Positions 3,724-52,707 of a DNA stretch of 64,000 nucleotides are shown here, piece after piece. The notes under the pieces were generated by a model. That model did no database searches and was not told the DNA's origin. It worked only from the letters and a program-made list of their open reading frames with translations. Location of the stretch: the IMG/VR virus record IMGVR_UViG_3300043571_000443, positions 10,187 through 74,186 of that record. One strand, 5' to 3'. Source of the stretch: a virus. Positions within the stretch are counted from its first letter, which is position 1. Each line of letters begins with the position of its first letter. Both the position numbers and the translations under genes were made by a program.

Positions 3724-4347
3724 ATGGCAACCAAGAAACCCACACCAAAGCTACGATCCAAGCACGCCCCCAAGCCAGCTCCTGGTGCTAGGCGGGGTAA
3801 CCGGCAGGTGGTAAAGACTTCCGGCCAGCCTGCTACGCCAGCCTGCAAGGAGCGGGCCTTTGAGCTGTACTGCGAGCTGGGGCCACAATGGGCCGAAATA
3901 TCTAGGCGACTGAAGGGCGAAGGCTTTGACCGCTGTGGCAATACGACGATCAGCGGCTGGGCCAAGGCAGGCGACTGGCACGCCAGGAAGCTAGCTATGA
4001 CTGAAGCGCCAGGCGAGGCGGCAAAGGTGCCCCACAAGACCAAGGCAGCACCGCCCCCACCGCCAGCGACAGACCTGGGCAGCTACCGCACCAAGAAAAC
4101 CAACCTGGAGCATGTCAGGACGGCCATTGAGCAGGTGGTGCAGTCCATCTGTGATGCACGGGCCACCAGCGACCTGCGGGCCATTGGTAGCCTAGCAACG
4201 GCGTTGGTAAAGCTGATTGAACTTGAGGGGAAATTAAGCCCCGCCACGGCAGCCGAACTAGCGGCTAGGGCCGTAGAGCTGGGTATGGATCCAGAACAAT
4301 TTGTGGCGGCATTGGCAGAGCAATGGCGGATCGCCAAAGCTGGGTAA
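3724..4347 (+). CDS. Putative terminase small subunit (HTH)
   Basis: RAFELY...AEISRRL...TTISGWAKAGDW HTH pattern plus helical C-terminus; preceded by the late-motif variant GGGCATCCTG at 3709. Confidence 0.5.
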   Translation: MATKKPTPKLRSKHAPKPAPGARRGNRQVVKTSGQPATPACKERAFELYCELGPQWAEISRRLKGEGFDRCGNTTISGWAKAGDWHARKLAMTEAPGEAAKVPHKTKAAPPPPPATDLGSYRTKKTNLEHVRTAIEQVVQSICDARATSDLRAIGSLATALVKLIELEGKLSPATAAELAARAVELGMDPEQFVAALAEQWRIAKAG

Positions 4348-4350
4348 GCG

Positions 4351-4440
4351 CTCCCACGGGGTGGGGTTGCTCAGGGCAAAGAATAACTCCCACGATGGTG
4401 GGGTGATCTAGCGACCGGAGCGACTCCCACCGAAGTGGGG
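4351..4440 (-). repeat. Three short-period (36-37 bp) hairpin units adjoining the CRISPR-like array
   Basis: CTCCCAC-N3-4-GTGGGG at 4351, 4387 and 4424. Confidence 0.7.
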
Positions 4441-4457
4441 CTGGGCTGCTGGGTTTG

Positions 4458-4832
4458 GAAAAACCCCCACCGAAGTGGAGAGGCGTTTGCGAACAGGCCG
4501 GGGAGGGGCCGGGGGCCGGGGCATGGTGGGGAGAAACCCCCACCGAAGTGGGGAGGTGGTTGCGAGTTGTCAAGGCTGACTTTGAAGCTGGCGTGGCGGT
4601 CGAGAAACCCCCACCGCAGTGGGGAGGTGCTTGCGAGTGTGCTTAGCAGAGCCCTTGATGCCAGCCTAGGCGACGAGAAACCCCCACCGAAGTGGGGTGT
4701 GCTTTGCGAGAACCCGCTGATCGAGGGCTTGACGCTTCGAGACTGGGAGAAACCCCCACCGAAGCGGGGAGGTCTTTGCGAGCAGTTAGGACAAATTGAC
4801 TCGAAGACGGAAAAACCCCCACCGGAGTGGGA
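4458..4832 (-). CRISPR. CRISPR-like array: five 36-nt repeats plus one partial repeat; spacers of 37, 35, 37, 36 and 27 nt
   Basis: Repeats GAGAAACCCCCACCGAAGTGGGGAGGTGnTTGCGAG (+ strand) start at 4458, 4531, 4602, 4675 and 4747, with a partial copy at 4810. Periods of 73, 71, 73 and 72 are not all multiples of 3. Orientation is inferred from the hairpin position. Confidence 0.75.
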
Positions 4833-7453: not shown

Positions 7454-10400
7454 CTATAGCACCAATGCGGTAAGATCGCTGAGCTGGCTATCCAGATTGG
7501 CGCTAGCCAGCCCTACAGCTTGCCGGATCTCAGGACTGGTCAGACCTGTTGTTGCGCCAGTACCAAACACATCAGCGTTTAGGTTGATCGCATAGCTACT
7601 GGCGGCAATCCCGGTACTGCTGCCGGGGAACGTAATACTCCCGCCTGCAATGCTGAGGGGTGTCGTGCTGTTGGTATTTTCAACCTCTACCCGCCCCGCC
7701 TGGTAACTGGTGAACGACAGCGCCTCTAGGGTGTCAAAGCTAGCCAGCCGAATGCCTGCTTCTGTGCTGCGCACCCAGCACCACCAAAGAAAAATATTCT
7801 GAATCAACTCAACGCCGTCAGTATCATTGGAATTGATCTGAAGAGTGCCCACACCCTCTAGGGCAATGGCAAACTGAGATAGGCCAGAGCCCGTATTAGC
7901 CGGGGTTAGTACGCCATATTTATTGCTTTGGATCTGGGTGCTGGCAACAATGGCTTCGTGGATAGGCTCTAAGACGGTTGGGCCGATAGCTGCACCCACG
8001 GTAATACCGCCTGTGATACTCCACACTAGCAGGCTGTCTCGGGTATCTAGGAAGCTGCCAGAGGTCGCTGTTCCGCCAGACTCCGCCCAGTAGGTGGCCT
8101 TAAGCCGTACCAGGGCACCATTGGGCAGGCTTAAGTTTTGGGCAAGGCCGCTGCCGCCAGACACCACGACATTGAACAGTTCAGTCTCAGCGGCTAGAGT
8201 AAAGTCACCACTGCCCTGGCTGGTAAAGTCTACCGGGGTGCTGGGAATATTGGCGATGCTAGCGAAAAGTTTACCGTCGCTCCAGTAATAGAAGCCACCA
8301 TCCTTAAGGACATTACTGGTGGTCGTGGGCAAGGTTGCGCCGCTATTGAGGCTAAAGCGTACCTGGGTCCAAGGGGCAGCGGTGGCAAAGGCCGCAGGAC
8401 GCCCCTGGCTATCATTGCCCAGGGTGATCGCATCGGTGGTGGTATTGATAGCGGTGCTGGCTACGGTGAAGCTTTGCACCCTGGCCGCATAGGCTCTGGA
8501 TCCATCGGCAAAATTAGGTGCAGTGAATCGGATCTGGGAAACAATGATGATCTTGGTAGGGTCGTAGATTAGCCCAGGGTCGCTGTAGGGAATGGTGAGG
8601 GTGAACGGTCCAACATTGTTAGCCGCCACCACATTCGCCCCCGTCTGGAGGATCAGATTGCTGCCAATGGTGGTGTTCTGGCTGATCGCCAGGGTAGCTC
8701 CGGAAGAGACGGTAAAATTATCGTTATAGGTAGCTTTACTGCTAAGCGTCAGAGTGGTGCCAGCGGCCATGGTAAAGCGATAGGTGCCGGTAATACCTGC
8801 CGTGGCCCCAGACAAGGTAAATCCTTCGTTAAATGTGCCCTCGGCGTCGTCGGTAGCTGTGTAGGCGTAGGGGTAAAATTCACCATTGGCATAGCCGGTG
8901 CTGCCGTCGCTATTGCGCAAGCTGATCAAGCTAGCGCCAATCACCAAAATAGAGAGTGCCTGGAATGCGGTGATCGCAGTAAATAGAGTCAGCGCACCAT
9001 TGGCGGAGGTTTTGGTGATGGCCGGGGCAGTGGTATAGCTTTGGGTCAGCAGGTCAATGACCGTATTGAAGCGGTTGAGTTGATTTAGCCTAGCGATCCG
9101 GCTGTTATTGCCAGAGATGAAACTGTTGGCCGCATCGGTGCTGTTGTAGCTCAGCGCTAGGGGTGCGGTATAGGAGGGAATCTGGAAGCTGGATAGGTAC
9201 TCCGGCAACGTATATTGCCTGCTAGTGGGGGCGACCTGAGTGCCCTTCACGTTGACAGTCGCCGTGCCGTCAAAGGCGTCTAGGTTCAGCTCATAAGCAT
9301 TAACGCCAGCGGTGGTCACAAAAGCGATCACGGTGCGGTTAGCCACGGTGTTATGGTAGAGCGCACCTAAAAGTGAGTCGGTAGCAGTAGTATTGTGCAG
9401 CCAATAAAACAATGCTGCGCTGGTGGGCACCGCATAGCCGCTGGAGTGCGCAATGGTTTGGCCGTTGATAGTAATGGTGCCGGTGCCATCAAAAATGTTG
9501 TCAGCAAAGCGGTAGAGCAGGTTAATGGTGTCCCCCGCTACCAGCAGGACTAAATCAGAACCCGCCTTTGTAAAACTTAGATGACGGGGCGTAGAAGCAC
9601 TTAGCCCATTGGTGGTGAAGGTGGCCTTTACTGCTGGAGCGCTTGATACTGTTGCAGCATCAAAGGCGTAGAGAAATAGCTGATTAGTGGTGCTGGTGGC
9701 GATCAAATAGCTAGTGCCAGCTTTGTAATAAAAATCTAGGTCTCTAGCCGTAACATTGACTGAAAATACAGGGGTGGCGATGTTGTAATAGCCAATAGTA
9801 GTTTCGGCGTTGGGCGCAATGCTTGTCCCATTGACGGTCACCGAGCTGGTGCCATTGAAATTGGCAAGTATTAAATTACGATAAAACGTAGCGGTACTGG
9901 TATTGCGAATCGAGGCAAAGCCATTAGCAAGGTCCGTTGATAGGCGGGCAGCGCTAGGAAAGGCTACACTGGCTAACCGCAATCGGGCACTAACAAATTT
10001 GTTGCCAGCCCCCCAGAACTGTAGCGCATCACCAACGGCGACAGCGTTGGTCAGCCCTGGCGCAAAGGTAACCCTAGCTCGGGTGCCTGCATCAACTAGG
10101 TTCGTCCGAGGATTAACCACCGATACATTGTTGCTGGCGAAATTCACCACATAGATCCGATCACTGGTCGGCGCATAGGCAATGGCGAAAGGCGAACTGC
10201 CAACGGTGATAGTGGCTACGACTGCATTACTGACAGGATTAACCACCGATACATTGCCTTCATTCGCCACATAGATCCGATCACTAGTTGGCGCATAGCC
10301 AACGGCGATAGGCCCAGTGCCAACGGTGATAGTGGCTACGACCGCATTACTGACAGGATTGATCACCGATACATTGTTGGCGGTAGAATTCGCTACATAG

Positions 10401-11500
10401 ATCCGATCACTAGTTGGCGCATAGCCAACGGCGCGAGGCCCAGTGCCAACGGTGATAGTGGCTACGACTGCATTAGTGACAGGATCAACCACCGATACAT
10501 TGTTAGCGCTGTTATTCGCCACATAGATCCGATCACTAGTTGGCGCATAGCCAACGGCCCGAGGCGTAGTGCCAACGGTGATAGTGGCTACGACCGCATT
10601 AGTGACAGGATTAATTACCGACACATTCTGGCCGCTTTGATTCGCCACATAGATCCGATCACTAGTTGGCGCATAGGCAACGGCGAAAGGCCCAGTGCCA
10701 ACGGTGATAGTGGCTACGACCGCATTGGTATCAGGATTAACTACCGATACATTGTTGGTGGTAAGATTCGCCACATAGATCCGATCACTAGTTGGCGCAT
10801 AGCCAACGGCGCGAGGCCCAGTGCCAACGGTGATAGTGGCTACGACCGCATTACTGACAGGATTGATCACCGATACATTGTTAGCGCTGTTATTCGCCAC
10901 ATAGATCCGATCACTAGTTGGCGCATAGCTAACGGCGAAAGGCTGAGTGCCAACGGCGATGGTGCCGGACAGTGCAATAATGCTAGCCGCTGACAGGGTA
11001 TGAGTCGTTGCACCACCAGCCACCGTGAAGCTATCGCCTACCGTTGGCGCAGTCTGAAAGGTGCCATTGCCGTTGTTGAGGTCCAGCGTAGTGCTACCCG
11101 CCAATAGGTTAGCGGCAGTCGTCCCGGCATCTACCAAAATGACTGCACAGCCACCCACGACCGTTGATGGGTCAAAGGCATAGCACCAAATATTGCCCCG
11201 ATCTCCAGCGGTTAGCAAATAGCCTACGCCGCCTGAAAAGAAAAATTGTAGGTCAGAGCTAGTCGTGTCATTGGTTTGCCTAAATTGACCTTGGCGATTT
11301 GCTTCAGTAAAAGTGCCGCCATTGCGAAAGTCGCCCCGCCAAAAAGAAACTAGGCTGCCAAGTCCTGCAAACACTAGGCTATTGTTCGGCGCTGCATCGT
11401 TAAACCAATACACTAAGCTTTGATTGGCAAGGATAGGATCAGCCGCATAGGTGGCATTCGCAGGGGTAACTTCAGCCGTCAGGGCGGTATTGACGCTCAT
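7454..11500 (-). CDS. Large tail fibre / receptor-binding protein with YVTN-type beta-propeller repeats
   Basis: 1348 aa; seven ~42-aa repeats of ATITVGTGPxAVxYAPTSDRIYVAN...NVSVxNP. Confidence 0.8.
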   Translation of the reverse strand: MSVNTALTAEVTPANATYAADPILANQSLVYWFNDAAPNNSLVFAGLGSLVSFWRGDFRNGGTFTEANRQGQFRQTNDTTSSDLQFFFSGGVGYLLTAGDRGNIWCYAFDPSTVVGGCAVILVDAGTTAANLLAGSTTLDLNNGNGTFQTAPTVGDSFTVAGGATTHTLSAASIIALSGTIAVGTQPFAVSYAPTSDRIYVANNSANNVSVINPVSNAVVATITVGTGPRAVGYAPTSDRIYVANLTTNNVSVVNPDTNAVVATITVGTGPFAVAYAPTSDRIYVANQSGQNVSVINPVTNAVVATITVGTTPRAVGYAPTSDRIYVANNSANNVSVVDPVTNAVVATITVGTGPRAVGYAPTSDRIYVANSTANNVSVINPVSNAVVATITVGTGPIAVGYAPTSDRIYVANEGNVSVVNPVSNAVVATITVGSSPFAIAYAPTSDRIYVVNFASNNVSVVNPRTNLVDAGTRARVTFAPGLTNAVAVGDALQFWGAGNKFVSARLRLASVAFPSAARLSTDLANGFASIRNTSTATFYRNLILANFNGTSSVTVNGTSIAPNAETTIGYYNIATPVFSVNVTARDLDFYYKAGTSYLIATSTTNQLFLYAFDAATVSSAPAVKATFTTNGLSASTPRHLSFTKAGSDLVLLVAGDTINLLYRFADNIFDGTGTITINGQTIAHSSGYAVPTSAALFYWLHNTTATDSLLGALYHNTVANRTVIAFVTTAGVNAYELNLDAFDGTATVNVKGTQVAPTSRQYTLPEYLSSFQIPSYTAPLALSYNSTDAANSFISGNNSRIARLNQLNRFNTVIDLLTQSYTTAPAITKTSANGALTLFTAITAFQALSILVIGASLISLRNSDGSTGYANGEFYPYAYTATDDAEGTFNEGFTLSGATAGITGTYRFTMAAGTTLTLSSKATYNDNFTVSSGATLAISQNTTIGSNLILQTGANVVAANNVGPFTLTIPYSDPGLIYDPTKIIIVSQIRFTAPNFADGSRAYAARVQSFTVASTAINTTTDAITLGNDSQGRPAAFATAAPWTQVRFSLNSGATLPTTTSNVLKDGGFYYWSDGKLFASIANIPSTPVDFTSQGSGDFTLAAETELFNVVVSGGSGLAQNLSLPNGALVRLKATYWAESGGTATSGSFLDTRDSLLVWSITGGITVGAAIGPTVLEPIHEAIVASTQIQSNKYGVLTPANTGSGLSQFAIALEGVGTLQINSNDTDGVELIQNIFLWWCWVRSTEAGIRLASFDTLEALSFTSYQAGRVEVENTNSTTPLSIAGGSITFPGSSTGIAASSYAINLNADVFGTGATTGLTSPEIRQAVGLASANLDSQLSDLTALVL
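10110..10960 (-). repeat. Near-identical ~126-bp coding tandem repeats
   Basis: Repeated ACATAGATCCGATCACTAGTTGGCGCATAG and CCAACGGTGATAGTGGCTACGAC blocks. Confidence 0.9.
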
Positions 11501-12678: not shown

Positions 12679-13221
12679 ATGGCAGGACAAGCCAAAGTAT
12701 TAACCCAAGACGAGATAGACGCACTCCTGTACCATTGCTCCAGTCCTCGGGACCGGGCGCTGATCGGGTGCATGTTATTTTGTGGCCTGCGAGTAGCCGA
12801 AGCGGTGGCCCTCAGTCCGAGTGATATAAAAGGAGGGATGCTTGTACTACCCAAGGCTAAGACCAAGGGCAAGCTAGCCAGCCGGTCCATTCCGGTGCAT
12901 CCTAGCCTGGCCATGCTGCTGCGACAGTACGGCCCACCCCAGGGCGAGTACCTATTCCCTGGCCGCCATGGCCGGGGCCACCTGCACCCCGCTAGCGCCA
13001 GCCAAGTGATCCAAGATTGCCTTACCCTAGCTGGACTCTCCGGGCTGGGCATCACCACCCATAGCTTCAGGCGCACTGCCTTGACGAAGCTGAGTAATGC
13101 TGGAGTACCCCTGCGGGTGATCCAGCAGATCAGCGGCCATAAAAGCCTGGCCAGCCTGCAGTTGTACCTGCAAGTCACGCCAGACCAGGTGGAGTCGGCG
13201 GTGCTGGCGGCGTTTAGTTGA
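12679..13221 (+). CDS. Small tyrosine recombinase (catalytic domain only)
   Basis: GLRVAE, K, HSFRR, SGH and LQLY catalytic residues; 180 aa. Confidence 0.9.
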   Translation: MAGQAKVLTQDEIDALLYHCSSPRDRALIGCMLFCGLRVAEAVALSPSDIKGGMLVLPKAKTKGKLASRSIPVHPSLAMLLRQYGPPQGEYLFPGRHGRGHLHPASASQVIQDCLTLAGLSGLGITTHSFRRTALTKLSNAGVPLRVIQQISGHKSLASLQLYLQVTPDQVESAVLAAFS

Positions 13222-13316
13222 CTCCCACCATTGTGGGACATACACCATCTGGCCGAAGCACCCCCACCATTGTGGGGCCTGCACCCTCTGGCCGAGCCAC
13301 CCCCACCGCAGTGGGC
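13222..13316. repeat. Three-copy hairpin array (~39-bp period)
   Basis: CTCCCACCATTGTGGG, CCCCACCATTGTGGGG and CCCCACCGCAGTGGG, starting right after the recombinase stop codon. Confidence 0.8.
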
Positions 13317-13346
13317 AAGCTAAGGCTAGCATGAGGGGACTGCATT

Positions 13347-22774: not shown

Positions 22775-22790
22775 GGTACTGGGGTGGGGG

Positions 22791-23885
22791 TCAAGCTGAT
22801 CGCTCGATTACAGCAGATGTCCGCCAATAGTAACTTACCTGAGGATCCGCGCCTAGCGTCGTCAACGTCAAGGTGTTTGACTCTGTGTCTATAATTCCGA
22901 ACCGGTTGCCGCCATCCTTAAGATATGGAATGCAGTAGATCTTTGTACCTACAACAGCAGATGTCCGCCAATAGTAACTTACCTGAGGATCCGCGCCTAG
23001 CGTCGTCAACGTCAAGGTGTTTGACTCTGTGTCTATAATTCCGAACCGGTTGCCGCCATCCTTAAGATATGGAATGCAGTAGATCTTTGTACCTACAACA
23101 GCGGACGTTAACCAGCGATACTGTATTTCCGGATCAGCTCCTAAGTCTACTAACTCTAGCGTGTCTGACTCGGTATCTAGAATACCAAACCGATTACCTG
23201 CTATTGGGCCAAGCGAAGGATCGCCTACACTGCTAAAAGGAATGGAATAAATTTTCATTCCTACGATAGCAGATGTATTCCATGAATATATTATATTAGG
23301 ATCAAGGCCTAATCTTGTTAACATCAATGTGTTTGACTGCACATTTATAATACCAAAATGATTACTTCCAATTAGCGCTACAGATGGAATGCAATAAATC
23401 TTTGTGCCTACACTAATACATGAAGACCAATTGTAAGTTACCTGAATATTCGCAGTTAGCGTGGTTAAGGTTAACAGATCTAATGCCGTGTCTATAATCC
23501 CAAACTGGGTTGTTCCACTTGTGCCAAAAGACGGAATGCAATAAACGCTTGTGCCTACAACAACAGATGCAAACCAGTTATAACTAACCTGAGAATTAAC
23601 ATTTAGTGTAGTCAATGTTAATGAGTTTGATCCTGCATTTATAATCCCGAATTGATTATTTCCGCTTGTGGCGACAGATGGGACACAATATATCTTTGAC
23701 CCTACGACAGCAGATGTAGCCCACTGATAATCAATTTGCGTATCAACTCCTAATGTTTTTAGGCCCAAGACATTTGATTGTGCATTGATAAGACCAAACT
23801 GATTCCCTCCAGAGCCTTCAAAAGGAATGCAATAAATATCGAATTTCTCCCCCCCAAACCATACCCAGCCTAGCTGCCTACCCAT
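22791..23885 (-). CDS. Beta-propeller (kelch-like) repeat protein, probable tail or receptor-binding component
   Basis: About seven repeats of VGTKIYCIP...FGII; visibly AT-richer than its neighbours. Confidence 0.7.
   Translation of the reverse strand: MGRQLGWVWFGGEKFDIYCIPFEGSGGNQFGLINAQSNVLGLKTLGVDTQIDYQWATSAVVGSKIYCVPSVATSGNNQFGIINAGSNSLTLTTLNVNSQVSYNWFASVVVGTSVYCIPSFGTSGTTQFGIIDTALDLLTLTTLTANIQVTYNWSSCISVGTKIYCIPSVALIGSNHFGIINVQSNTLMLTRLGLDPNIIYSWNTSAIVGMKIYSIPFSSVGDPSLGPIAGNRFGILDTESDTLELVDLGADPEIQYRWLTSAVVGTKIYCIPYLKDGGNRFGIIDTESNTLTLTTLGADPQVSYYWRTSAVVGTKIYCIPYLKDGGNRFGIIDTESNTLTLTTLGADPQVSYYWRTSAVIERSA
22811..23098. repeat. Exact 144-bp tandem duplication
   Basis: 22811-22954 equals 22955-23098 (one 48-aa blade). 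Confidence 0.85.
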
Positions 23886-41584: not shown

Positions 41585-41767
41585 TTAGTGCCACAACTGC
41601 ATCAGGCCACGGACAGCGACCACGACCCAGCCAGCGCTGATCACCGAGGCCCATGCGGTGGATACCCAGGAGCGATGGCGGCGACGGATAGCGACCCGGG
41701 TGGCCCCGGCAAACAGGAGGCAGGCTGTCATCGCAGCCAGGCCCAGGACAATGTAGACAATAGCCAT
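41585..41767 (-). CDS. Small two-TM protein
   Basis: Two hydrophobic segments; first gene after the late motif at 41790. Confidence 0.5.
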   Translation of the reverse strand: MAIVYIVLGLAAMTACLLFAGATRVAIRRRHRSWVSTAWASVISAGWVVVAVRGLMQLWH

Positions 41768-41850
41768 AGCAGATCCCCATCGTTTTGCTTAGGGTGCCCA
41801 GGCAATAAAAAACCCCGGGCTGGCCGGGGTGGAAGTAGCGTGGAGTCAGG

Positions 41851-42096
41851 CTACTCTGGCTTATAAAAACATTTGCCAACGGCGCCCCATACCGAGTGAG
41901 TGGTGATGTTTTTATGCGGAATGATAACACGACTACCATCGAAGATGATGATCAAGTCATCCTTCCGATAGCTGCAACCATCACGATCACCATACAAAAA
42001 TTGCTGAACTGTGCCGCCCATGTACTCAGGCGCAAACATGAATAACGCCTGATTTACCTCGGCCCCAAAAGACTGACACATAGTAGGCGTAGACAT
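41851..42096 (-). CDS. Small protein in promoter cassette 1
   Basis: Own promoter at 42105-42168 and terminator at 41806-41830. Confidence 0.65.
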   Translation of the reverse strand: MSTPTMCQSFGAEVNQALFMFAPEYMGGTVQQFLYGDRDGCSYRKDDLIIIFDGSRVIIPHKNITTHSVWGAVGKCFYKPE

Positions 42097-42104
42097 AACT
42101 CAAT

Positions 42105-42168
42105 CCTCGTAAGTGGTTCGATACCTTCACTATACCCCCCCTGTATCGAACCGTCAACAGCCTGCAAC
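42105..42168 (-). promoter_or_regulatory. Repeated promoter cassette, copy 1
   Basis: TTGACG-17-TATAGT, inverted repeat GTTCGATA/TATCGAAC, CCACTTACGAGGA leader. Confidence 0.8.
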
Positions 42169-42211
42169 AAAAAACCCCGGACTGGCCGGGGCAATGCAAC
42201 AGCCTAGCAGA

Positions 42212-42670
42212 TCAGACCCTGGCCGCCCAGTGGCGCTCTAGCAGGTCGTCTGCCGTCCTGGCTAAGTTAATTCGGGCACCGTCGTTGATAGCCTCAGAGA
42301 TAGCGCCAATGTGGTATGCCGCCATCTTCGAGTAGTATTTCAGCGCCCCAGTCAGGCAGGACATCCACAGCGGCAATTTCTCCCAGGTGGGGCGCTGACT
42401 ATTGTAAAACTGGCTGAACCCGCTGATCGGCTCTTGCAACGCCTTGCGGCACTGGGCCAGGCTACTGCCTTGCTGGCTGGCCAGGACCACCAGGGCCTCC
42501 ATGCAAGCCACATACCGGCTAGCCATGGTATCAACAGGCTCACCGCTGACTAGGCCATCGTTCACCAGCTGGATAGCCCGTTGCAGGTCACCCAGGGCAT
42601 CAGTACTAGCTGGCCGGATAGCCAGGATGGCTGGCTCTAGATCGGCGAGTCGGGCGAGAGTCTTAGTCAT
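42212..42670 (-). CDS. Hypothetical protein
   Basis: ORF followed by a terminator at about 42168-42191. Confidence 0.5.
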   Translation of the reverse strand: MTKTLARLADLEPAILAIRPASTDALGDLQRAIQLVNDGLVSGEPVDTMASRYVACMEALVVLASQQGSSLAQCRKALQEPISGFSQFYNSQRPTWEKLPLWMSCLTGALKYYSKMAAYHIGAISEAINDGARINLARTADDLLERHWAARV

Positions 42671-42753
42671 GGGTGGATCCGGTAAACGTCCCCACTAGCC
42701 TAGCAGAAACCCGAACAAAAGCCTATGGCCGGAAGGAAAAAGCCTAAAGCGGG

Positions 42754-42811
42754 GTTGACGGTTCGATATGCAGGGGGTATATTGAAGGTATCGAACCACT
42801 TACACCGAGGA
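42754..42811 (+). promoter_or_regulatory. Repeated promoter cassette, copy 2
   Basis: TTGACG (42755)-17-TATATT (42778); same inverted repeat and leader. Confidence 0.8.
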
Positions 42812-42818
42812 CCGACCC

Positions 42819-43022
42819 ATGCCCAAGTTCATTTCCATCCAAGACGGCGCTTACCTGCTCAACCTGGCCCATATCGTCAGCATCGAGGTAAATAAAGGAT
42901 CCCTGGAAGTTACCTGCAATGATGGCCAAGGGGCCTACACCATAGATGACCCTGACGAGATGGGGACACTGATGGACGCGATCCAAATCGTGGATTCAAG
43001 CGAAGAAGGGATGCAAATGTAA
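42819..43022 (+). CDS. Small acidic protein in promoter cassette 2
   Basis: GAGGA RBS; terminator at 43051-43073. Confidence 0.65.
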   Translation: MPKFISIQDGAYLLNLAHIVSIEVNKGSLEVTCNDGQGAYTIDDPDEMGTLMDAIQIVDSSEEGMQM

Positions 43023-43058
43023 CCCACCCTCCCCACCGCTTCCCCGCAGACCCCCGGC

Positions 43059-43733
43059 CTAGCTGGGGGTTTTGCTTTGGGCCACATAGCTGAGCAGGTC
43101 CATTAACCGGCTGCCCCGCACTGGCGCGATCTGGTCCTCCAGTGGCTGATACTGGCTGATCGCCCGCATCAGCCTGTCGCTGTGGTACAAACCGCTATCG
43201 ATCTCCGTCTTGCTAAACCCCAGCGCCATTAGCCCCTCATAGGCAGCTAGAAGGCCCGTGAAGCGTTCCCGGCCTATCCACAGGGTATCTAGCTCGAACT
43301 GCACCGGGAAATGGTCTCTGCTATGGCCATCCTGGGCCCAGGGCAGCACATGTTTCTGGCCAGACTCAGCAATGACAATCGTAAACGGTGGCTCCGGTGG
43401 CTCCAGTAGCCAGCCACGGATCTGAGCTCGGGTGGGCAAGTCCGAGACTACCGGAAAGATGTCTTTGCCGATGGCCTTGGCCTCACCGATCGCAGGCGAC
43501 AGCAGCACATCGCCCTGGTACAACCGGCTCAGGGACCGGCCCCATAGCTTACTCCACTTGTCCTTGCCCTGATTCCAGTACCACAGCAGCTTCTCATGGC
43601 CGTCGATGGCACCATAGCACCGCCCGCATAGCTGGTCGGAGTCTGGGCAACGGGCCATGCTGTGGCCGGTGAAAGTGTCCTTGAGCGCCAAGGGGAAGCT
43701 GGCGGGCTTGCCGCATAGGTAGCACTCAGCCAT
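43059..43733 (-). CDS. csf1: Type IV CRISPR large subunit Csf1 (Cas8-like)
   Basis: N-terminal Zn finger CYLCG...TFT...CPDSDQLCGRC and LLEPPEPPF...SGQKHVL motifs; ATG at 43733 overlaps the cysH stop. Confidence 0.75.
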   Translation of the reverse strand: MAECYLCGKPASFPLALKDTFTGHSMARCPDSDQLCGRCYGAIDGHEKLLWYWNQGKDKWSKLWGRSLSRLYQGDVLLSPAIGEAKAIGKDIFPVVSDLPTRAQIRGWLLEPPEPPFTIVIAESGQKHVLPWAQDGHSRDHFPVQFELDTLWIGRERFTGLLAAYEGLMALGFSKTEIDSGLYHSDRLMRAISQYQPLEDQIAPVRGSRLMDLLSYVAQSKTPS

Positions 43734-44469
43734 GGTCTGCAACCTCCGGAAAGTGTTTACAAAATTCAGCCCAAAATTCTGGATGGTAGCGCCGCAGGTC
43801 ACTGAGTCGCCCCCAGTTTACGCCAGTAGTCCCGATGGGTGGCCCATTGCGCACCGTCAGCCGGTCCCGGTCGTACATGGCAGGGTAGGGCAGTCGGTGG
43901 GCGTCGATATAGCACCAAATATCCTGGGTGCTCCAAAAGCCGACCGGCGAACATACCCACAGGCCATCCTTACGCTGGTATAGCTCGCCCTTGCCCTTCA
44001 GGTACATAGCGCGGCCCCGAGACTCTTTGCGTAGCCCCCAGGCATAGCCTCGCACGCCATGGGCCTCCTGGTAGTCATCCAGCGGGCCATACATTAGCGC
44101 TGCATTAATGCGCTTGTCCAGGCCGGTCGCCATGGTGCCATCCAAGGGAATGCCATAGTCCTGGTACAGCTTCAGTAGGCTGCGGGGTGGGCATAGCTCG
44201 ATGATGTTCCAGCCCTGGCCCTGCAGGTGGTGCAATAGCTCGATGCAGTCCGGCCATTCTGCCAACGGCCCTTGGTTTACCCAGGCAAAAGGGCAGTCCG
44301 GCCATACCTGGCGGATTAAGTGAGCCATTACCAAGCTATCCTTGCCGCCACTGACTGAGCCATAGGCGTAGCGATCTGTGGCCTCCAGCCAGCGGCCAAT
44401 AACAGAAAGCGCCCGGTCAACCTTGCGGGTCAACCAGGGCGCTCGTGAGCCGGTGCCGGTGTTAAGCAA
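43726..44469 (-). CDS. cysH: CysH / PAPS-reductase-like protein of the type IV-B locus
   Basis: PP-loop SVSGGKDS, WGLRKESRGR, PVGFWS...IWCYI...LPYPAMYD. Confidence 0.85.
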   Translation of the reverse strand: MLNTGTGSRAPWLTRKVDRALSVIGRWLEATDRYAYGSVSGGKDSLVMAHLIRQVWPDCPFAWVNQGPLAEWPDCIELLHHLQGQGWNIIELCPPRSLLKLYQDYGIPLDGTMATGLDKRINAALMYGPLDDYQEAHGVRGYAWGLRKESRGRAMYLKGKGELYQRKDGLWVCSPVGFWSTQDIWCYIDAHRLPYPAMYDRDRLTVRNGPPIGTTGVNWGRLSDLRRYHPEFWAEFCKHFPEVADHG

Positions 44470-44770
44470 GCTGCATCCGCTCGCTCATTGCATCCGCAAA
44501 CCATTCGCGGATCTTGTCTTCGGCATTGTCATAAAAGCGAGTGTTGGAGTCGTCATCCCACTCTTCGTCGTTGAGGTGGGGGACGGTAAGAATGAGTCCG
44601 GGGCTATCGTACAGGTTCCCAACAGAACCCTTGTCCAGGGATCGGTAGGTGCCATCCTCAAACAGCTCAACAACGTAAGCACCGCCGCCCCAGGATGCCT
44701 TTGTGGAAGAATCAACGGTGGCCTCGAAGTCGATGGCCATGAAGTTATCGAAAGCCTTTTGAATAGTCAT
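44462..44770 (-). CDS. Small, very acidic protein in promoter cassette 3, inside the cas operon
   Basis: D/E-rich (NDEEWDDDS); own promoter. Confidence 0.7.
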   Translation of the reverse strand: MTIQKAFDNFMAIDFEATVDSSTKASWGGGAYVVELFEDGTYRSLDKGSVGNLYDSPGLILTVPHLNDEEWDDDSNTRFYDNAEDKIREWFADAMSERMQLA

Positions 44771-44777
44771 CAGTCAG

Positions 44778-44837
44778 TCCTCATAAGTGGTTTGTTCCAT
44801 GCCTTCAATATACCCCCTGCATATCGAACTGTCAACA
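44778..44837 (-). promoter_or_regulatory. Repeated promoter cassette, copy 3
   Basis: TTGACA-17-TATATT; the -35 overlaps the cas6 stop codon; CCACTTATGAGGA leader. Confidence 0.8.
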
Positions 44838-45440
44838 CTTTTCGACAAAATAGCCACAGCCTAGGCGCTGTCTACCTCCTAGCCCTTGCCGCTGGAGAGT
44901 CAGCGACGCATCCGGCGATAGGTCGGCAAAGCTTACCCCGTAGCCCACCACGGCAGCATCCTTGATCCGCAGGGTTTTGCGCTCCCCCAGTACCGGCATA
45001 GACTGTACCCCCAACCGTTCCAGCGCCTTGCCTAGGGCTATCCCGAACTCAAAAGGTGACACCTGGTCCTGGTACTGGGCTTTGATGGTCACCAGCCTTG
45101 CCTCCAGGCTAGGACATGGCTGCAGGGATGCACCCGTGAAGGTGCCTAGCTGCACCAGCGCCTTACCCACCCGCAATACTTGCCCGTCCAGGCTACCGAA
45201 TAGCTCCAGGTTGGCCAGCTCAGTCCGCACCCCTAGCCAGCTTTCGCTACCCAGTTGCACCCAGCCCTGGCGGTCCGGGATACCGTTGATCGTCTTCAGC
45301 GACCAGGCCAGCTCCTTTAGCCCCGGCAGGCGTTCCACCAGAGCGCTATAAAGCCGGTAGCCATGGTCGGCGGGTATCCTATCGCCCTGCACCGGCCAAG
45401 CTAGCTGTATCCAGGTAGGCGGTGTGGACGGGCATGGCAC
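44832..45440 (-). CDS. cas6: CRISPR-associated endoribonuclease Cas6 (Myxan / I-B-like)
   Basis: LAWPVQGDRIPADHGYRLYSAL N-terminal motif; C-terminal Gly-rich loop GLGGRQRLGCGYF; probable GTG start at 45440. Confidence 0.85.
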   Translation of the reverse strand: MPCPSTPPTWIQLAWPVQGDRIPADHGYRLYSALVERLPGLKELAWSLKTINGIPDRQGWVQLGSESWLGVRTELANLELFGSLDGQVLRVGKALVQLGTFTGASLQPCPSLEARLVTIKAQYQDQVSPFEFGIALGKALERLGVQSMPVLGERKTLRIKDAAVVGYGVSFADLSPDASLTLQRQGLGGRQRLGCGYFVEKC

Positions 45441-46107
45441 AGCGGGCTTTGTTGGCTGATAGCCAGGCGGGGGGTCGCCAGCCCCAGTCGCGGATGGCAA
45501 TATCAATCGGTCGGTCCCGGGGCAGGTGGACGGCGGGGATGGGTCGCATAAGTTCACCGTTTGGCCCCCATAGGTGCCAGTCTTGGTCATGGTCCTCTAC
45601 CTCCCAGTTGGTAACTTGCCCGTAGCCATGGGCGCGTTTCTTGCCTAGCCCAGTACAGCCTTGCAATAATGCCGCGATGCCTTCCCGGTCGCCCTGGCAG
45701 TACCAGGTGATTGTCGGTGCCAGCCGCACAAACAAGGGCAGGTCGTAGGCTTTCTCCGCCCCCTGACTGGTATCCCACTTTGCCTTGCGCTTCCCCCAGG
45801 CCGGTGGTGGGCTATCGATCCCAGGTGCCCAGCGCTTCCTAAATTTGCTAACCGACTCATTGCGGTAGGTGTAGCACGGACTAGAGGTTTGCCAGTACCA
45901 ATCCTCGCCCAGCCAACCCTTAGCCAGTGGCATGTGTTCATCCACTACCGGGCGGCTAGCTTCTACGTCCTGGGCGCTAGGGTTGGGGGCCGCCATGCCC
46001 CGGGCATCGAGGATCAACCACTCCAGCAGGCTAGCCAGATCAGGACTCCAGTCATCAAAGACGGCAATGCCCGACGATAGCCGGGCGGTGACTCGCAGGT
46101 TAGCCAT
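45379..46107 (-). CDS. csf3: Type IV Csf3 (Cas5 group)
   Basis: LRVTARL RAMP start, WYCQGD...LGKKRAHGYGQV Gly loop, MRPIP, WRPPAW. Confidence 0.8.
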   Translation of the reverse strand: MANLRVTARLSSGIAVFDDWSPDLASLLEWLILDARGMAAPNPSAQDVEASRPVVDEHMPLAKGWLGEDWYWQTSSPCYTYRNESVSKFRKRWAPGIDSPPPAWGKRKAKWDTSQGAEKAYDLPLFVRLAPTITWYCQGDREGIAALLQGCTGLGKKRAHGYGQVTNWEVEDHDQDWHLWGPNGELMRPIPAVHLPRDRPIDIAIRDWGWRPPAWLSANKARCAMPVHTAYLDTASLAGAGR

Positions 46108-47263
46108 TGAGCAAACCCTTCAGCTCGCTGGACTCCTGGGCCTGGGCTAGAAATTCCTGGTAGACGCTCAGGTAGTCCTGATAGGCATGGTGGGCCTCCT
46201 GAGCGGCGCTGGATAGCGTCTGGCTGCCAGTAGCTAGCGATAGGAAATGGCCGCGCTCCTGGCCACGCTGATACCAAAATTCTAGCGACACCAACCCATT
46301 GCCGCGGTTAGCCTTGCCGCCGATATAGGGACTTTCGGCAAAGCGCAGTAGGGTATCGACTACCCAGCCAGTCTCGATGGCGGTGGTGTGCAGATCCCAG
46401 CGGCTATAGAGCCTGGAACCCGCCATGATCAGCCGGTCGCTGGCGATCATCTGGTCAGACTTTTTGGCCTTATCCTCACCCTTAGCCTTTGACTTGGCCT
46501 CACCCAATAGGCTCATCTGGCCTTCCTCCGTACCGCCTGGGAGGAACTTTTGCAACGCTGGATCGTGGGTACTATCGCGGCGGGTGGTTTGGTCTACCGT
46601 CAGGTACTGGGTCCAGTTGCGCAGCATCTTGCGCAGGTAGGGCAGGTGGTCTGCCTTGGCCTGGCGGTAGACTTCAACCTGCTCAGCCGTAGGTGGCTCA
46701 AACGGATTAGCTGTTAGCCTGTCTTTGTACTCCAGTAGTTCCTGCAGCCTGGGCAGTACATCTGGCGGCAATAGGCCGGGAAATTCCCGGTAGATCAGCT
46801 CCGCCGACTCGTAGCACAGCAGATACGCACTACCCACCGCCAGTCGGCCATGGACCATCTGGGCATTCTTCACCCCAAATACCCCGGCAGGCTTGGCCGT
46901 ACCCAGCACCGACAGCCAGGGCATCAACTGCCGGATGCGGGTGTCCAGGTCCATATCGTTGGCGGTGCTGCCATCAATGCGGCCGCCAGCAAATAGGGTG
47001 TGGTGAACATCTGGCGATACCTGCAGGGCCAGCGCATCCAGCACACTAGCCATGCCACGGCGGCGTAGGATACCATTCCGCAGCGCATTGCCAGAATAGA
47101 CAAAGCAGGAGACCGGGTTCCCCTCCAGGTCCAGCAGCTTGGCCGTCTTGAGGTTACTGACATTGCCTGCTACCTCGCCAATGTGGGACAGCGGGCTTTG
47201 CAGGGTCACCTGGCAGTGCAAGGTGATCCGCTGCCGATCATGGATATCGTAAGCTTCAAACAT
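46100..47263 (-). CDS. csf2: Type IV Csf2 (Cas7 group backbone)
   Basis: TLQSPLSH, YSGNALRNGILRR, LFAGG, TTRRD, IGGKANRGNG. Confidence 0.85.
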   Translation of the reverse strand: MFEAYDIHDRQRITLHCQVTLQSPLSHIGEVAGNVSNLKTAKLLDLEGNPVSCFVYSGNALRNGILRRRGMASVLDALALQVSPDVHHTLFAGGRIDGSTANDMDLDTRIRQLMPWLSVLGTAKPAGVFGVKNAQMVHGRLAVGSAYLLCYESAELIYREFPGLLPPDVLPRLQELLEYKDRLTANPFEPPTAEQVEVYRQAKADHLPYLRKMLRNWTQYLTVDQTTRRDSTHDPALQKFLPGGTEEGQMSLLGEAKSKAKGEDKAKKSDQMIASDRLIMAGSRLYSRWDLHTTAIETGWVVDTLLRFAESPYIGGKANRGNGLVSLEFWYQRGQERGHFLSLATGSQTLSSAAQEAHHAYQDYLSVYQEFLAQAQESSELKGLLNG

Positions 47264-47771
47264 CGGTGGTTACCTCTACGTCGATAGCATCGTCTGGCGC
47301 ATCCTGGCCTAGCGCCCGGTCTTCCTCAAAGCGCAGGCGGCACAGCACCTGAATGATAGCCGCCCGGGTCCGGCATAGCTCAAGCACATCCCACTCGGTA
47401 AAGCCGTCCTTGGCGATCTGCTGCAGCAAGTCCCGCCAGCCGACAAAGACTAGCGCCTCATCCTGGGTCAGCTCCTGGATCTCGCTCAGGTCAGCGTTTA
47501 CCCGTAGGATGCGCTGCTCTGGCTGCACGATGCCGGTCAGTACCGCTGGCCGTAGGTGGCTGATCAAGGCATTGACCAGGCGTTGTAGGTAGTCCTCCAG
47601 CGTGGTGGATACCTCAGCGCTATTCTGGATAGTGGACTCCAGAAAAGTCCAGGTCTTGGTGCCCATGGCTGGACTTTTGGCCCGGTCGCGGCACTTGAAC
47701 ACCCAATAGCTAAGGGCTGCCGCTAGCCCATAGGCGCTATCGGAGGCATTGGAAAAACCGAATTGACTCAT
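47256..47771 (-). CDS. Type IV-B small subunit (Cas11-like)
   Basis: All-helical ~170 aa protein coupled upstream of csf2; TATAAT on the minus strand at 47791-47796. Confidence 0.55.
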   Translation of the reverse strand: MSQFGFSNASDSAYGLAAALSYWVFKCRDRAKSPAMGTKTWTFLESTIQNSAEVSTTLEDYLQRLVNALISHLRPAVLTGIVQPEQRILRVNADLSEIQELTQDEALVFVGWRDLLQQIAKDGFTEWDVLELCRTRAAIIQVLCRLRFEEDRALGQDAPDDAIDVEVTTDV

Positions 47772-47885
47772 AATGCTTGACAAAACTGCCATTATAGTAT
47801 CACAACCCTGGCCAGCCACGACAAAGCCCGCCAGGTGGCCAGCGGGCTGGGGTGGGGGAGTGGGGTGGAGGGGGAGTGTCCTCTT

Positions 47886-48197
47886 TTACTCAAATACGAC
47901 TCGCCGCATCTCCTCTTGCACACCAAGCATTAGTTCTAAAGCTTGGTCAAATGTTCGATTTACTCTGCCCATGCGCTGACGGACATCTGGCTCAACTTCA
48001 GACCCCAAGGCCCTTTTTGCCAATAAATCGAAGATAGCTTCTTCCAAAAGCGCTTGAACGCTAGTATTCTCCTGAGAAGCTATTTCCCGCAGCTTGACGG
48101 AGACCTCTGGATCAAAGCGACCAGCTATCATCTTTTTGTTTCGTCTAGCTTTGTTGGCATCAACATCAAGCATGAAATACAGCTCCATCAGAAACAA
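47886..48197 (-). CDS. Ribbon-helix-helix regulator
   Basis: IAGRFDPEVSVKLREIASQENTSVQALLEEAI. Confidence 0.65.
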   Translation of the reverse strand: MFLMELYFMLDVDANKARRNKKMIAGRFDPEVSVKLREIASQENTSVQALLEEAIFDLLAKRALGSEVEPDVRQRMGRVNRTFDQALELMLGVQEEMRRVVFE

Positions 48198-52156: not shown

Positions 52157-52251
52157 CTATAAAACTCCAGTCTGCGTACTGTCAACAAAGTCATGCTAAC
52201 ACAACTAAGCTTAAAGTTGGCGGCTATTATTTGGATTTTATAACTTTTGGG

Positions 52252-52506
52252 TTCCCCCACCCCTGTGGGGCCTGCACCATCTGGTTGAACCACCCCCACC
52301 GCAGCGGGGCAGTTAACGCCCTTCAGCAGGACACACCCCCACCCCGTGGGGCCTCTGAAAAGCTACCGATCCACCCCCACCATCATGGGACACCATAACC
52401 CTGTAGGAGTCACCCCCACCCGGTGGGGCACAGGAGCTAAACCGATCAACTCCCACCGCAGTGGGGCCTTTATCCCGAGTGACTCACCCCCACCAGCGTG
52501 GGGCCT
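52252..52506 (-). repeat. Seven-unit hairpin array (period about 37-43 bp) with I-E-like repeats and short linkers
   Basis: CACCCCCACC-N2-3-GTGGGGC(C) units at about 52254, 52291, 52334, 52372, 52411, 52448 and 52485, with non-identical linkers. Confidence 0.8.
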
Positions 52507-52509
52507 GGC

Positions 52510-52707
52510 CTACGCCGCGTCCTGCTGCTCTCCCTCCTCCATTACCACCACGGGCTCTAGCACCTGCCGGGCCAGGGCCTGCATGGCTGGCGGGGCGTCT
52601 GGCTGGGCTAGCACCAGGGCGGCTAGCTCCTTGGCCGCAGCCTGGGCGGCTTTGGTGCGGGCAATGCCCTTGCGGAAAATAGCCTTCGACTGTGCAGTTA
52701 GTTGCAT
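52510..52707 (-). CDS. Hypothetical protein
   Basis: Last gene of the replication operon; the array starts right after its stop codon. Confidence 0.5.
   Translation of the reverse strand: MQLTAQSKAIFRKGIARTKAAQAAAKELAALVLAQPDAPPAMQALARQVLEPVVVMEEGEQQDAA

Follow-up and report, generated by a model that had tools for sequence, protein, structure and literature searches.

Reiterated terminator-promoter-leader cassettes, probably of the PeSL kind, front exchangeable small genes in an uncultured freshwater phage

T4-type myoviruses carry composite terminator/promoter cassettes named promoter-early stem-loops, or PeSLs (Arbiol et al. 2010, PMC2839356; Comeau et al. 2014, PMC4122927), and PeSL stem-loops overlapping the -10 element have already been described (PMC2839356). 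A PeSL combines a terminator or stem-loop, placed upstream of the -35 or overlapping the -10, with a sigma-70-consensus promoter that ends in a Shine-Dalgarno sequence and a start codon; PeSLs front small ORFan genes in plastic regions, and the indels and replacements found between close relatives break in the motifs. Each of these traits recurs at the locus described here. PeSLs differ in number, with about 50 per T4-type phage against four copies per genome here, and they are also defined by measured promoter and terminator activity and by mini-circles.

Several other systems resemble the locus in part. Lambdoid morons are promoter-gene-terminator units inserted between conserved genes; they too are autonomous accessory-gene units, present or absent between otherwise collinear relatives, but they are not known to have a common reiterated promoter/leader, while here the shared module is the apparent recombination substrate. 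In the start-associated sequences (SAS/ESAS) of Cluster K mycobacteriophages, a conserved word that includes the ribosome-binding site stands directly 5' of many starts; a start-adjacent word is likewise conserved here, but SAS elements are not known to go with exchange of cargo or with a promoter that is reiterated. Integron cassettes are also exchangeable single-gene units at a fixed site, but they are promoterless, carry attC and depend on an integrase, whereas the units here have their own promoter, no integrase nearby and junctions that resemble homologous exchange. The acr-aca operons, which consist of a strong promoter, an inverted-repeat operator, small acr genes and an Aca repressor, are compared below.

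The DNA comes from an uncultured freshwater phage with a 74-kb genome that has terminal repeats, and the window is the whole stretch of 64,000 nucleotides that was analyzed. The degenerate 34-nt pattern TTGACR GTTCGATA N4 GGGGGTATAKTGAAGG matched the window exactly three times, at 42124-42157 (minus strand), 42755-42788 (plus strand) and 44802-44835 (minus strand), and none of 100 shuffled sequences, the chance expectation being none. A repeat search independently paired the three copies through arms of 43-50 nt that are 90-93% alike, and in a consensus scan of the 14 kb between 38 and 52 kb the three modules were the three best sigma-70-like sites, with TTGACA or TTGACG, a 17-nt spacer and TATATT or TATAGT (10-11 of 12 consensus matches). 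These results agreed with the original prediction of three cassettes of about 60 bp with a consensus spacing of 17 bp. All copies in the window lie inside 2.7 kb. The predicted number was correct for the window and too low for the whole genome, which has four copies: a fourth, diverged one, with a leader of about 100 nt, was found beyond the window (G000:C1, around 8520, minus strand). The features of the first two cassettes are the following.

42212-42670, minus strand: orf152, constant neighbor, upstream of T1 and P1 and divergent from P2
42174-42192, minus strand: predicted intrinsic terminator T1, following orf152, with the copy 1 -35 located 16 nt downstream; left boundary of cassette 1
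42124-42157, minus strand: promoter core P1 (copy 1), -35 TTGACG at 42157-42152, -10 TATAGT at 42134-42129
42097-42123, minus strand: leader 1, with the right arm TATCGAACC, the conserved CCACTTAC and the Shine-Dalgarno sequence GAGGA
41851-42096, minus strand: orf81, cargo of cassette 1, an orphan of 81 aa
41812-41830, minus strand: predicted intrinsic terminator T0, right boundary of cassette 1 and crossover partner of T1 in relatives without the cassette
41790-41799, minus strand: GGGCACCCTA motif, candidate second-class promoter; the next conserved gene (41585-41767) has its ATG 22 nt downstream
42755-42788, plus strand: promoter core P2 (copy 2), -35 TTGACG at 42755-42760, -10 TATATT at 42778-42783
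42789-42818, plus strand: leader 2, with TATCGAACC, CCACTTAC and GAGGA
42819-43022, plus strand: orf67, cargo of cassette 2, 67 aa
43042-43081, no strand assigned: GC-rich hairpin (-25.3 kcal/mol), candidate bidirectional terminator between the convergent orf67 and csf1-like gene

Each core in the window is followed by a leader of 27-31 nt with (G)AACCACTTAY and GAGGA and then by ATG, and in all copies a Shine-Dalgarno sequence (GAGGA or GGAG) stands 6-8 nt 5' of the ATG. As predicted, the -10 of copies 1 and 2 is spanned by an inverted repeat, GGTTCGATA / TATCGAACC (9-10 bp), of which copy 3 has only a degenerate right arm. Across 21 aligned copies there is little or no variation in the spacer GTTCGATA and the G-run, and none in the G before TTGAC, the module consensus being (G)TTGACR-N17-TATAKT with CGATA in the spacer and GGGGG before the -10 as invariant extras. 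Since these copies are far more alike (invariant spacer, G-run and leader word CCACTTAY), they form a true sequence family, whereas PeSL is a loose motif class. Strong predicted intrinsic terminators lie on both sides of cassette 1 as part of the repeated unit; T1 has a 7-bp stem with 6 GC pairs, a T-run and a folding energy of -16.4 kcal/mol, and forms a repeat pair with T0.

The stem-loop of a PeSL thus has its counterparts in T1, 16 nt upstream of P1, in a weak hairpin with a T-run at P3 and in the inverted repeat across the -10 of P1 and P2, with a stability not above that of shuffled sequences (z -0.3 to -1.5 for the promoter-overlapping stems); no clear hairpin was seen upstream of P2. 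The promoter, the 3' end formed by a Shine-Dalgarno sequence and an ORFan start, and the position of the breakpoints also correspond to those of PeSLs. TerL and DnaB are nearest to those of non-T4 phages (45-50% identity), and the match is therefore one of design, not of lineage. A role of the leader as an RNA hairpin was considered and rejected, since transcription probably starts downstream of the left arm and the folding z-scores are unremarkable. An Rfam search of the long-leader variants, and of a non-coding stretch driven by a cassette in relative G006, gave nothing above noise.

The copies are best explained as a PeSL-type family of self-contained expression cassettes (four in the genome, three in the window), a reading to which we assign a probability of about 0.7. 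One unit comprises a predicted upstream terminator or stem-loop, a promoter of housekeeping-sigma consensus, a short leader, one small accessory gene and usually a terminator. Host RNA polymerase with its primary sigma factor would fire the module promoters strongly, and probably early, while the terminators would insulate the units from their neighbors and from the downstream operon, which includes a minor capsid (virion) gene. Shared stretches of 60-110 bp would be portable homology for recombination, so that accessory genes could plug in ready for expression. Promoter strength, timing and terminator function are predicted here from consensus. The PeSL strategy would then be seen outside T4-type phages, in unusually clear molecular detail, with one reiterated terminator-promoter-leader module both expressing and shuffling orphan genes.

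A further difference from PeSLs is that one copy lies inside a cas operon. Type IV-B systems have csf1, csf2 (cas7), csf3 (cas5), cas11 and a cysH-like gene, and cas6 and the array are usually absent. The third copy was found, as predicted, between cas6 and a CysH-like gene followed by a weakly matching Csf1-like gene.

44832-45590, minus strand: cas6 (Cmx6-type), Pfam Cas6 at 5e-47
44856-44871, minus strand: weak hairpin with T-run, within the cas6 3' end and upstream of copy 3
44802-44835, minus strand: promoter core P3 (copy 3), -35 TTGACA at 44835-44830, -10 TATATT at 44812-44807
44771-44801, minus strand: leader 3, with the degenerate right arm CATGGAACAAACC, then CCACTTAT and GAGGA
44462-44770, minus strand: orf102, 102 aa, cargo of cassette 3; its conserved family comprises 32 clusters
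43726-44469, minus strand: CysH-like gene with a PAPS-reductase domain (Pfam PAPS_reduct, 1.5e-10), whose TTG start overlaps the cargo stop (TTGCTTAA)
43059-43802, minus strand: Csf1-like gene, last of the unit (NCBIfam TIGR03114 at 6.6e-10, weak at 39 bits against a cutoff of 140)

The NCBIfam matches of Csf1, Csf2 and Csf3 range from 1e-9 to 1e-14, every one below its curated cutoff, and the putative cas11 (47256-47819) gave no match. As listed, the cas6 ORF runs into csf3, so its true start probably lies downstream of 45590. The TGA stop codon of cas6 falls inside the -35 hexamer of P3, the glycine-rich loop at the Cas6 C-terminus is encoded in the P3 flank, and the weak hairpin belongs to a flank of about 38 nt that travels with the P3 cassette. 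There is no convincing terminator between orf102 and cysH, and because the TTG start of cysH overlaps the cargo stop, transcription of cysH is predicted to start both at P3 and further upstream. The anatomy is thus that expected if copy 3, sitting on the cas6 stop codon, were also an internal promoter driving cysH-csf1 separately, which may uncouple these genes from the rest of the phage-borne type IV-B-like operon. A search for more distant cas6 relatives without a cassette, which bears on whether an older cas6-cysH junction was split by P3, returned the same clade only. The possibility that orf102 is itself a cas component was rejected: close relatives have unrelated genes in its place, and the neighbors of its homologues in other phages, in the minority of contexts seen, have no informative Pfam domain and none is Cas-like.

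About 40 further module copies were found in about 20 related freshwater contigs, where they occupy at least four distinct genomic contexts, also in otherwise different phages; a megablast of the region against isolate phages gave no match. The slot of copy 1 is empty, single or double in relatives, with sizes of 86, 256, 448, 610-613 or 979 nt. Cassette 1 is absent from L013, which lacks window positions 41830-42163 and joins the left flank of T1 to the right flank of T0 through a crossover inside the terminator hairpin, and three relatives (L026, L032 and G006) carry tandem cassettes. The copy 3 cargo differs between relatives that are 94-97% identical, being orf102, a protein of 73-75 aa or one of 85 aa, and the right breakpoint of the replacement is the cysH start codon; in L012, L027 and L029 a gene of 93 aa, preceded by a duplicate of the leader tail, comes after the 73-75-aa cargo. 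The copy 2 unit varies at its 3' end, the N-terminal 50 aa of orf67 being constant in relatives and the C-terminus giving forms of 58, 65 and 67 aa. The hairpin at 43042-43081 is one boundary of a cas-operon indel in G006. Cargo is therefore gained, lost and replaced between near-identical phages, with breakpoints in the shared terminator, leader or start-codon regions, and comparison of related phages for cargo swapping, proposed together with the idea that the cassettes are exchangeable, supported that idea.

Copies within one genome evidently homogenize each other, as in gene conversion: in L015 the P3 core equals the P2 core of the same contig, and spacer variants are shuffled across contexts. 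Two otherwise different phages (L014 and L021) match the window over no more than about 111 bp (87% identical) and have no cas proteins in common with it, and their flank still encodes a DRQRLGYSYFIEKC-type Cas6 C-terminus remnant behind stop codons. Since they carry the copy 3 module together with this dead 3' piece of cas6, the module has moved between phages. The transferred remnant, the conversion between copies and the crossover inside the terminator hairpin are notable details of the exchange. Recent local duplications without a role of their own, with ordinary mosaicism or assembly chimeras behind the cargo differences, would suit the clustering of the window copies within 2.7 kb and the metagenomic origin of the contigs, in which repeats can cause mis-joins. 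However, the junctions are the same across independent samples and collections, the module is conserved while flanks and cargo are unrelated, and it occupies at least four genomic contexts, including otherwise different phages to which the cas6 remnant was co-transferred, so this account is very improbable.

The original prediction had called the cassettes immediate-early. This is plausible, because the promoters fit the housekeeping-sigma consensus, a separate GGGCACCCTA class precedes larger genes, at least one virion gene among them, and the phage has its own sigma factor. Eight GGGCACCCTA motifs lie in the genome (expected number 0.18), and each is followed at 20-40 nt by a start codon in the same orientation. 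The sigma factor (196 aa, G000 7562-8152) is truncated and SigF-like and is encoded convergently with the fourth cassette; Pfam detected region 2 (2e-17) and not region 4, and the best match was cyanobacterial SigF (2e-37). Similarities of TerL, DnaB and this sigma factor point weakly to a cyanobacterial host.

Reading of the promoters, wholly or additionally, by the phage SigF-like sigma through GGGGGTATA would make the cassettes middle/late or dual-sigma units. GGGGGTATA is of the GGGTAT/GGTAA type that serves group 3 sigmas as a -10, a GGTAA -12 element is used by SigF of Synechocystis (PMC2532724), neither the G-run ahead of TATA nor the G ahead of TTGAC varies, and sigma homologues are also encoded by two cassette-bearing relatives, G001 and G004. 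Yet a 10-11/12 match to the primary-sigma consensus with ideal spacing would be an odd coincidence for an alternative sigma, no TAGGC-like -32 element was seen, and the GGGCACCCTA motif is the better candidate target of the phage factor; moreover, the cassette is shared where that motif is absent (G001) or single (G004), which fits a portable promoter read by the host. Use of the phage factor is thus decidedly improbable. The CGATA and GGGGG elements, which ordinary sigma-70 recognition does not need and which expression from PeSL-like cassettes leaves unexplained, may be bound by a regulator or by the SigF-like sigma.

The cargo proteins of the window are mutually unrelated by BLASTP and two of them are strongly acidic, as predicted (net charge -10 for orf67 and -13 for orf102, about neutral for orf81). 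Across the module copies BLASTP separated at least 12 mutually unrelated families of small proteins, four with a net charge of -9 or below and several not acidic; homologues of orf81 form six clusters, all inside this phage group. Searches of all cargo proteins against Pfam, PHROG, NCBIfam and PDB sequences gave no match, and no DNA-binding domains were found. Structure prediction, which had been suggested as a check, succeeded in part: the AlphaFold model of orf102 is confident (pLDDT 90.6) and resembles no known fold convincingly (Foldseek against PDB and BFVD, E > 0.6; best Z 5.7 in a wide VIA search), and the model of orf67 was too poor for a fold search. ESM Atlas searches returned only sub-threshold or unnamed clusters for orf102 and for orf152, the latter having no family match and no DNA-binding domain. 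With about a dozen small, rapidly exchanged proteins behind strong predicted promoters, the cargo constitutes a test list for counter-defence or host-takeover roles.

The cassettes had been proposed to form one anti-defence regulon, encoding Acr-like proteins or DNA mimics under a single phage repressor bound to GGTTCGATA...TATCGAACC across the -10. They do recall acr-aca operons in their strong consensus promoter, in the inverted repeat around the -10 of some copies and in their small, acidic, orphan and rapidly exchanged first genes; distant orf102 homologues (L037-L040) are each the first gene behind a palindrome-overlapped consensus promoter, as in acr-aca operons. The cargo varies between near-identical phages and adjoins accessory genes (the type IV-B-like cas operon and a weakly HerA-like ATPase gene), the spacer GTTCGATA and the G-run are nearly invariant though ordinary promoter function needs neither, four cargo families are strongly acidic, and an RHH protein gene lies 3 kb away, in another unit (47886-48197). 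Against this, the units are single genes, no HTH or RHH gene of aca type lies within or beside any cassette, and the cargo has no match to a known Acr or anti-restriction family or structure, several families not being acidic. The idea of one repressor is weak in particular, because conservation is limited to the left arm, and about half of the copies, including orthologous P1 copies (L012, L015 and L020) and most P3 copies, lack the right arm TATCGAACC or have it in degenerate form; no compensating changes accompany this, and arm centers 29 bp apart are unusual for a dimeric operator. Such a regulon is possible but unlikely; an anti-defence function of the cargo, taken by itself, is possible.

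On the same footing, it may tentatively be imagined that PeSL-like cassettes serve as a plug-and-play counter-defence platform common to phages of one host, with new proteins as cargo that inhibit host immunity or modulate the type IV-B system of the phage itself, immediate expression by the host polymerase and re-timing at CGATA/GGGGG by the SigF-like sigma or a repressor. Candidate cargo would be orf102, orf67 and the alternatives of 75 and 85 aa, which are unrelated and mostly acidic. Through exchange at the cas6-cysH junction, a phage-borne CRISPR effector would then be linked to an anti-defence gene that keeps changing.

The window holds three copies of a promoter cassette, as the original prediction had claimed: exactly three matches to the pattern were found, shuffled sequences gave none, and the copies were independently paired by a repeat search. 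The elements of the region are listed below (window coordinates, except for the fourth cassette, which is placed on the whole phage record G000:C1):

42124-42157 (-): P1, promoter of cassette 1, with cargo gene orf81
42755-42788 (+): P2, promoter of cassette 2, with cargo gene orf67
44802-44835 (-): P3, promoter of cassette 3, with cargo gene orf102
41812-41830: T0, predicted intrinsic terminator
42174-42192: T1, predicted intrinsic terminator
G000:C1 8198-8620 (-), some 1.7 kb to the left of the window: fourth cassette (terminator, TTGACA-18-TATATT, leader, 60-aa ORF, terminator)
at or below 41.6 kb, left of the cassettes: virion gene for an SPP1 gp7-like minor capsid protein
minus strand, right of the cassettes: type IV-B-like cas block, in the order possible cas11, csf2, csf3, cas6, orf102, cysH-like, csf1-like
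beyond the cas block: weakly HerA-like ATPase, second PAPS-reductase-like gene, DnaB helicase and replication initiator

P1, P2 and P3 were the three best sigma-70-like sites in a consensus scan of 14 kb. The spacer is 17 nt in each, and a leader of 27-31 nt leads on to an ATG. Cassette 1 is located between the near-identical T1 and T0, a hairpin pair found nowhere else in the genome; orf67 and csf1 are convergent, with a strong GC hairpin at their meeting point. The fourth copy, which has diverged, came to light in a relaxed search of the whole genome, beyond the window at about 8520 (-). A GGGGTATATT word is duplicated in it, and its leader of about 100 nt, without a match in Rfam, ends in the same CCACTTACACCGAGGACCGAC tail as the other copies. 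A stretch of some 75 additional bases in the leader of this copy (GGGAGGCGG...CCTCCC) recurs in the related contigs L013 (at P2) and L032 and is missing from the orthologous copy in the relative G006, which makes it an indel inside the leader.

The 74,186-bp record, of which the window covers bases 10187-74186, bears direct terminal repeats, and between about 21 and 58 kb of the window nearly every gene is on the minus strand. Since virion genes lie on one side and replication genes on the other, the cassettes occupy an accessory region in between. The cas operon is headed by a promoter-like stretch containing TATAAT, and immediately upstream of this stretch and of a terminator lies a gene for a 103-aa ribbon-helix-helix protein (47886-48197, minus strand; Pfam Antitox_RHH, 6e-15), a candidate regulator of that operon.

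Public collections were scanned with the promoter core, which identified 13 viral and 8 metagenome contigs, as well as a single 3.4-kb contig from the bin of a lake MAG; about 40 copies were extracted from them. The context of each copy was defined by its upstream flank:

P1 context: terminator plus GTTGCAGGCKG
P2 context: divergent from orf152, the constant neighbour
P3 context: cas6 3' end
P4 context: flank known from relatives only
variant-type context: duplicated GGGGTATATT word

Alignment of 21 distinct copies showed GTTGAC, G, T, CGATA, GGGGGTATA and TG to be invariant, and (G)AACCACTT, A and GAGGA, followed by 6-8 nt to the ATG, to be near-invariant. The closest known system is the promoter-early stem-loop (PeSL) cassette of T4-type phages (PMC2839356, PMC4122927), all of whose sequence-level defining features are present here. 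The phage in question is not T4-type, however. Judged by their sequence features, the cassettes probably belong to the known PeSL design, and three aspects of them are of particular interest: one copy sits on the cas6 stop codon, a remnant of cas6 was transferred along with the cassette, and copies have undergone conversion.

The left arm of the inverted repeat lies within the spacer and is nearly universal among copies. The right arm, at about +3 to +11, is complete in every P2 copy with a short leader, in the converted P3 copies and in some of the P1 copies; elsewhere it is replaced by CATGGAAC(AA)ACC, AAAGAAACC or GTGTTGAACC; no changes compensating for an altered right arm were found in the copies compared. 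Because PeSL stem-loops have been described between the promoter boxes or over the -10 (PMC2839356), the inverted repeat can be explained without a repressor. A regulator could possibly bind CGATA or the G-run.

The proposal that the cassettes are exchangeable was borne out among close relatives, in which the slot is empty, single or multiple and the cargo of P3 has been replaced. L013 is 96-97% identical on either side and lacks window 41830-42163, its junction joining the T1 left flank to the T0 right flank inside the hairpin; this is what would be left by an exchange between the two terminators. The slot from orf152 to the conserved gene that follows varies in length across contigs: 86 nt where it is empty, otherwise 256, 448, 610-613 or 979 nt. 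Two or three tandem cassettes are found in L026, L032 and G006, with the same terminator-promoter composite between them. Between cas6 and cysH there are 362-366 nt with orf102 and 608 nt with an alternative cargo. The left breakpoint of this replacement lies in the leader, after CCACTTA, and the right one at the cysH start codon, a TTG that overlaps the stop codon of whichever cargo is present. P3 in L015 and L022 has a core and right arm identical to those of the same contig's P2, whereas in P3 of the window the spacer differs and the arm is degenerate; together with the spread of spacer variants TGCA, CAGG and TGGT across contexts, the identity of P3 with its own P2 indicates conversion between copies. 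G006, with a TerL 98% identical, lacks the entire cas operon (window 43039-47878 versus L065 7791-9127, a stretch of G006), and the terminators that bound it (47803-47870 upstream, 43039-43081 after csf1) are side by side there, so the cas block is itself an exchangeable unit. This abutting terminator pair is also duplicated in G006, with roughly 1 kb of other genes enclosed between the two copies.

Cargo differed between contexts. P2 is followed by the orf67 family in every case (C-terminal forms of 58, 65 and 67 aa, with an extra downstream gene in some relatives), P1 by orf81 in most cases, and P3 by orf102, a 73-75-aa acidic protein or an 85-aa protein. In L012, L027 and L029, a 93-aa gene comes after the 73-75-aa cargo and has a duplicate of the leader tail in front of it. 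Alternatives to the three cargo proteins of the window include proteins of 75, 85, 77, 87 and 60 aa. Counting tandem and P4 cassettes, there are at least 12 cargo families, which BLASTP found mutually unrelated apart from a single weak 20-residue match and for which Pfam and PHROGs gave no match. The orf102 family (32 clusters, 15 invariant residues; AlphaFold pLDDT 90.6) is a real, conserved family, and structure searches with its model returned no fold match. Distant orf102 homologues were found in four other, unrelated phage contigs (L037-L040), each as the first gene behind a consensus promoter, 130-200 nt upstream of position 4001. A palindrome overlaps every one of these promoters and differs from contig to contig (three GTATAC units in one case, TTGTACTACAA/TTGTAGTACAA in another), which suggests operator-controlled early units. 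Such placement, the small size of the cargo, a net charge of -9 or below in four families, fast turnover and the accessory location would suit proteins directed against host defence, a role compatible with exchangeable PeSL-type cassettes. Against it, the searches matched the cargo to no known inhibitor, an aca-like partner is absent and several families are neutral, and the role seems rather unlikely. A tandem array in G006 includes, as its third member, a cassette (L066 2590-2950, plus strand) that drives about 300 nt without an obvious ORF, GC-rich and hairpin-rich, which possibly represent a non-coding RNA; Rfam gave no match for this stretch.

The PeSL-type cassettes have also moved between phages. 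G001 (92.5 kb) and G004 (76 kb) each contain one P3-type cassette, alone amid opposite-strand genes and sharing only about 111 bp with the cassette region at 87% identity. Neither has a TerL or Csf2 homologue, and both carry only a mosaic subset of this phage's other genes. In the 38-50 nt upstream of their promoters, an in-frame reading gives DRQRLGYSYFIEKC-stop or DRQHLGCSYFIEKC-stop, with stop codons before it. This stretch is what is left of the Cas6 C-terminus, non-coding, with 13-17 in-frame codons behind stops, and it precedes the cassette at two positions:

L014 10594-10650 (-): Cas6 C-terminus remnant
L021 7946-8000 (-): Cas6 C-terminus remnant

No cas genes are near the remnant in the phages of these contigs. 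In the window the same stretch codes for the Cas6 C-terminus GLGGRQRLGCGYFVEKC, and the Pfam match reaches residue 249/252. A glycine-rich loop is characteristic of Cas6 proteins, and GLGGRQRLGCGYFVEKC fits it. On the simplest reading, the cassette would first have been at the cas6 end, and other phages would later have received a copy of it along with a piece of cas6.

Judging by their match to the primary-sigma consensus, the cassette promoters are more likely to be read by the host polymerase. The phage encodes a 196-aa sigma factor (G000:C1 7562-8152, plus strand; Pfam Sigma70_r2, 2e-17) whose best match is cyanobacterial SigF (NCBIfam PRK07408, 2e-37) and in which no region 4 was detected; G001 and G004 have homologues with 34% identity. 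Genes for SSB and the beta clamp are found on the opposite strand, at distances of about 0.7 and 1.2 kb. The cassette promoters may be read by both host and phage sigma, as their invariant G-run and TATA together look like the GGTAA-type -12 element of SigF (PMC2532724). The 10-mer GGGCACCCTA occurs eight times, versus 0.18 expected from shuffles (window coordinates):

4897 (+), 18572 (+), 19005 (+): GGGCACCCTA
28039 (-), 30103 (-), 38647 (-), 41799 (-), 58499 (-): GGGCACCCTA

Every copy is 20-40 nt upstream of a co-oriented ATG; the minor capsid gene is one of the genes concerned, and the gene that directly follows T0 is another. GGGCACCCTA looks like a candidate second, phage-specific promoter class (phage-sigma or late) or a leader motif. 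G001 has no copy of it and G004 almost none, whereas the cassette is present in both, a distribution that might fit a host-read portable early promoter and a later class read by the phage sigma.

Similarities of TerL, DnaB and the sigma factor point, weakly, to a cyanobacterial host. Dispersed hairpin arrays of CCCCCACC-N4-GTGGGG, with periods of about 72 nt or shorter, were observed at window 4417-4830, 13220-13330, 52250-52510 and 63347-63386. In-frame tandem repeats at 10130-11059 and 22781-23802 (periods of 126 nt and 144-147 nt) sit within large minus-strand ORFs of 1348 aa and 364 aa, and probably encode repeat domains in tail or fibre proteins.
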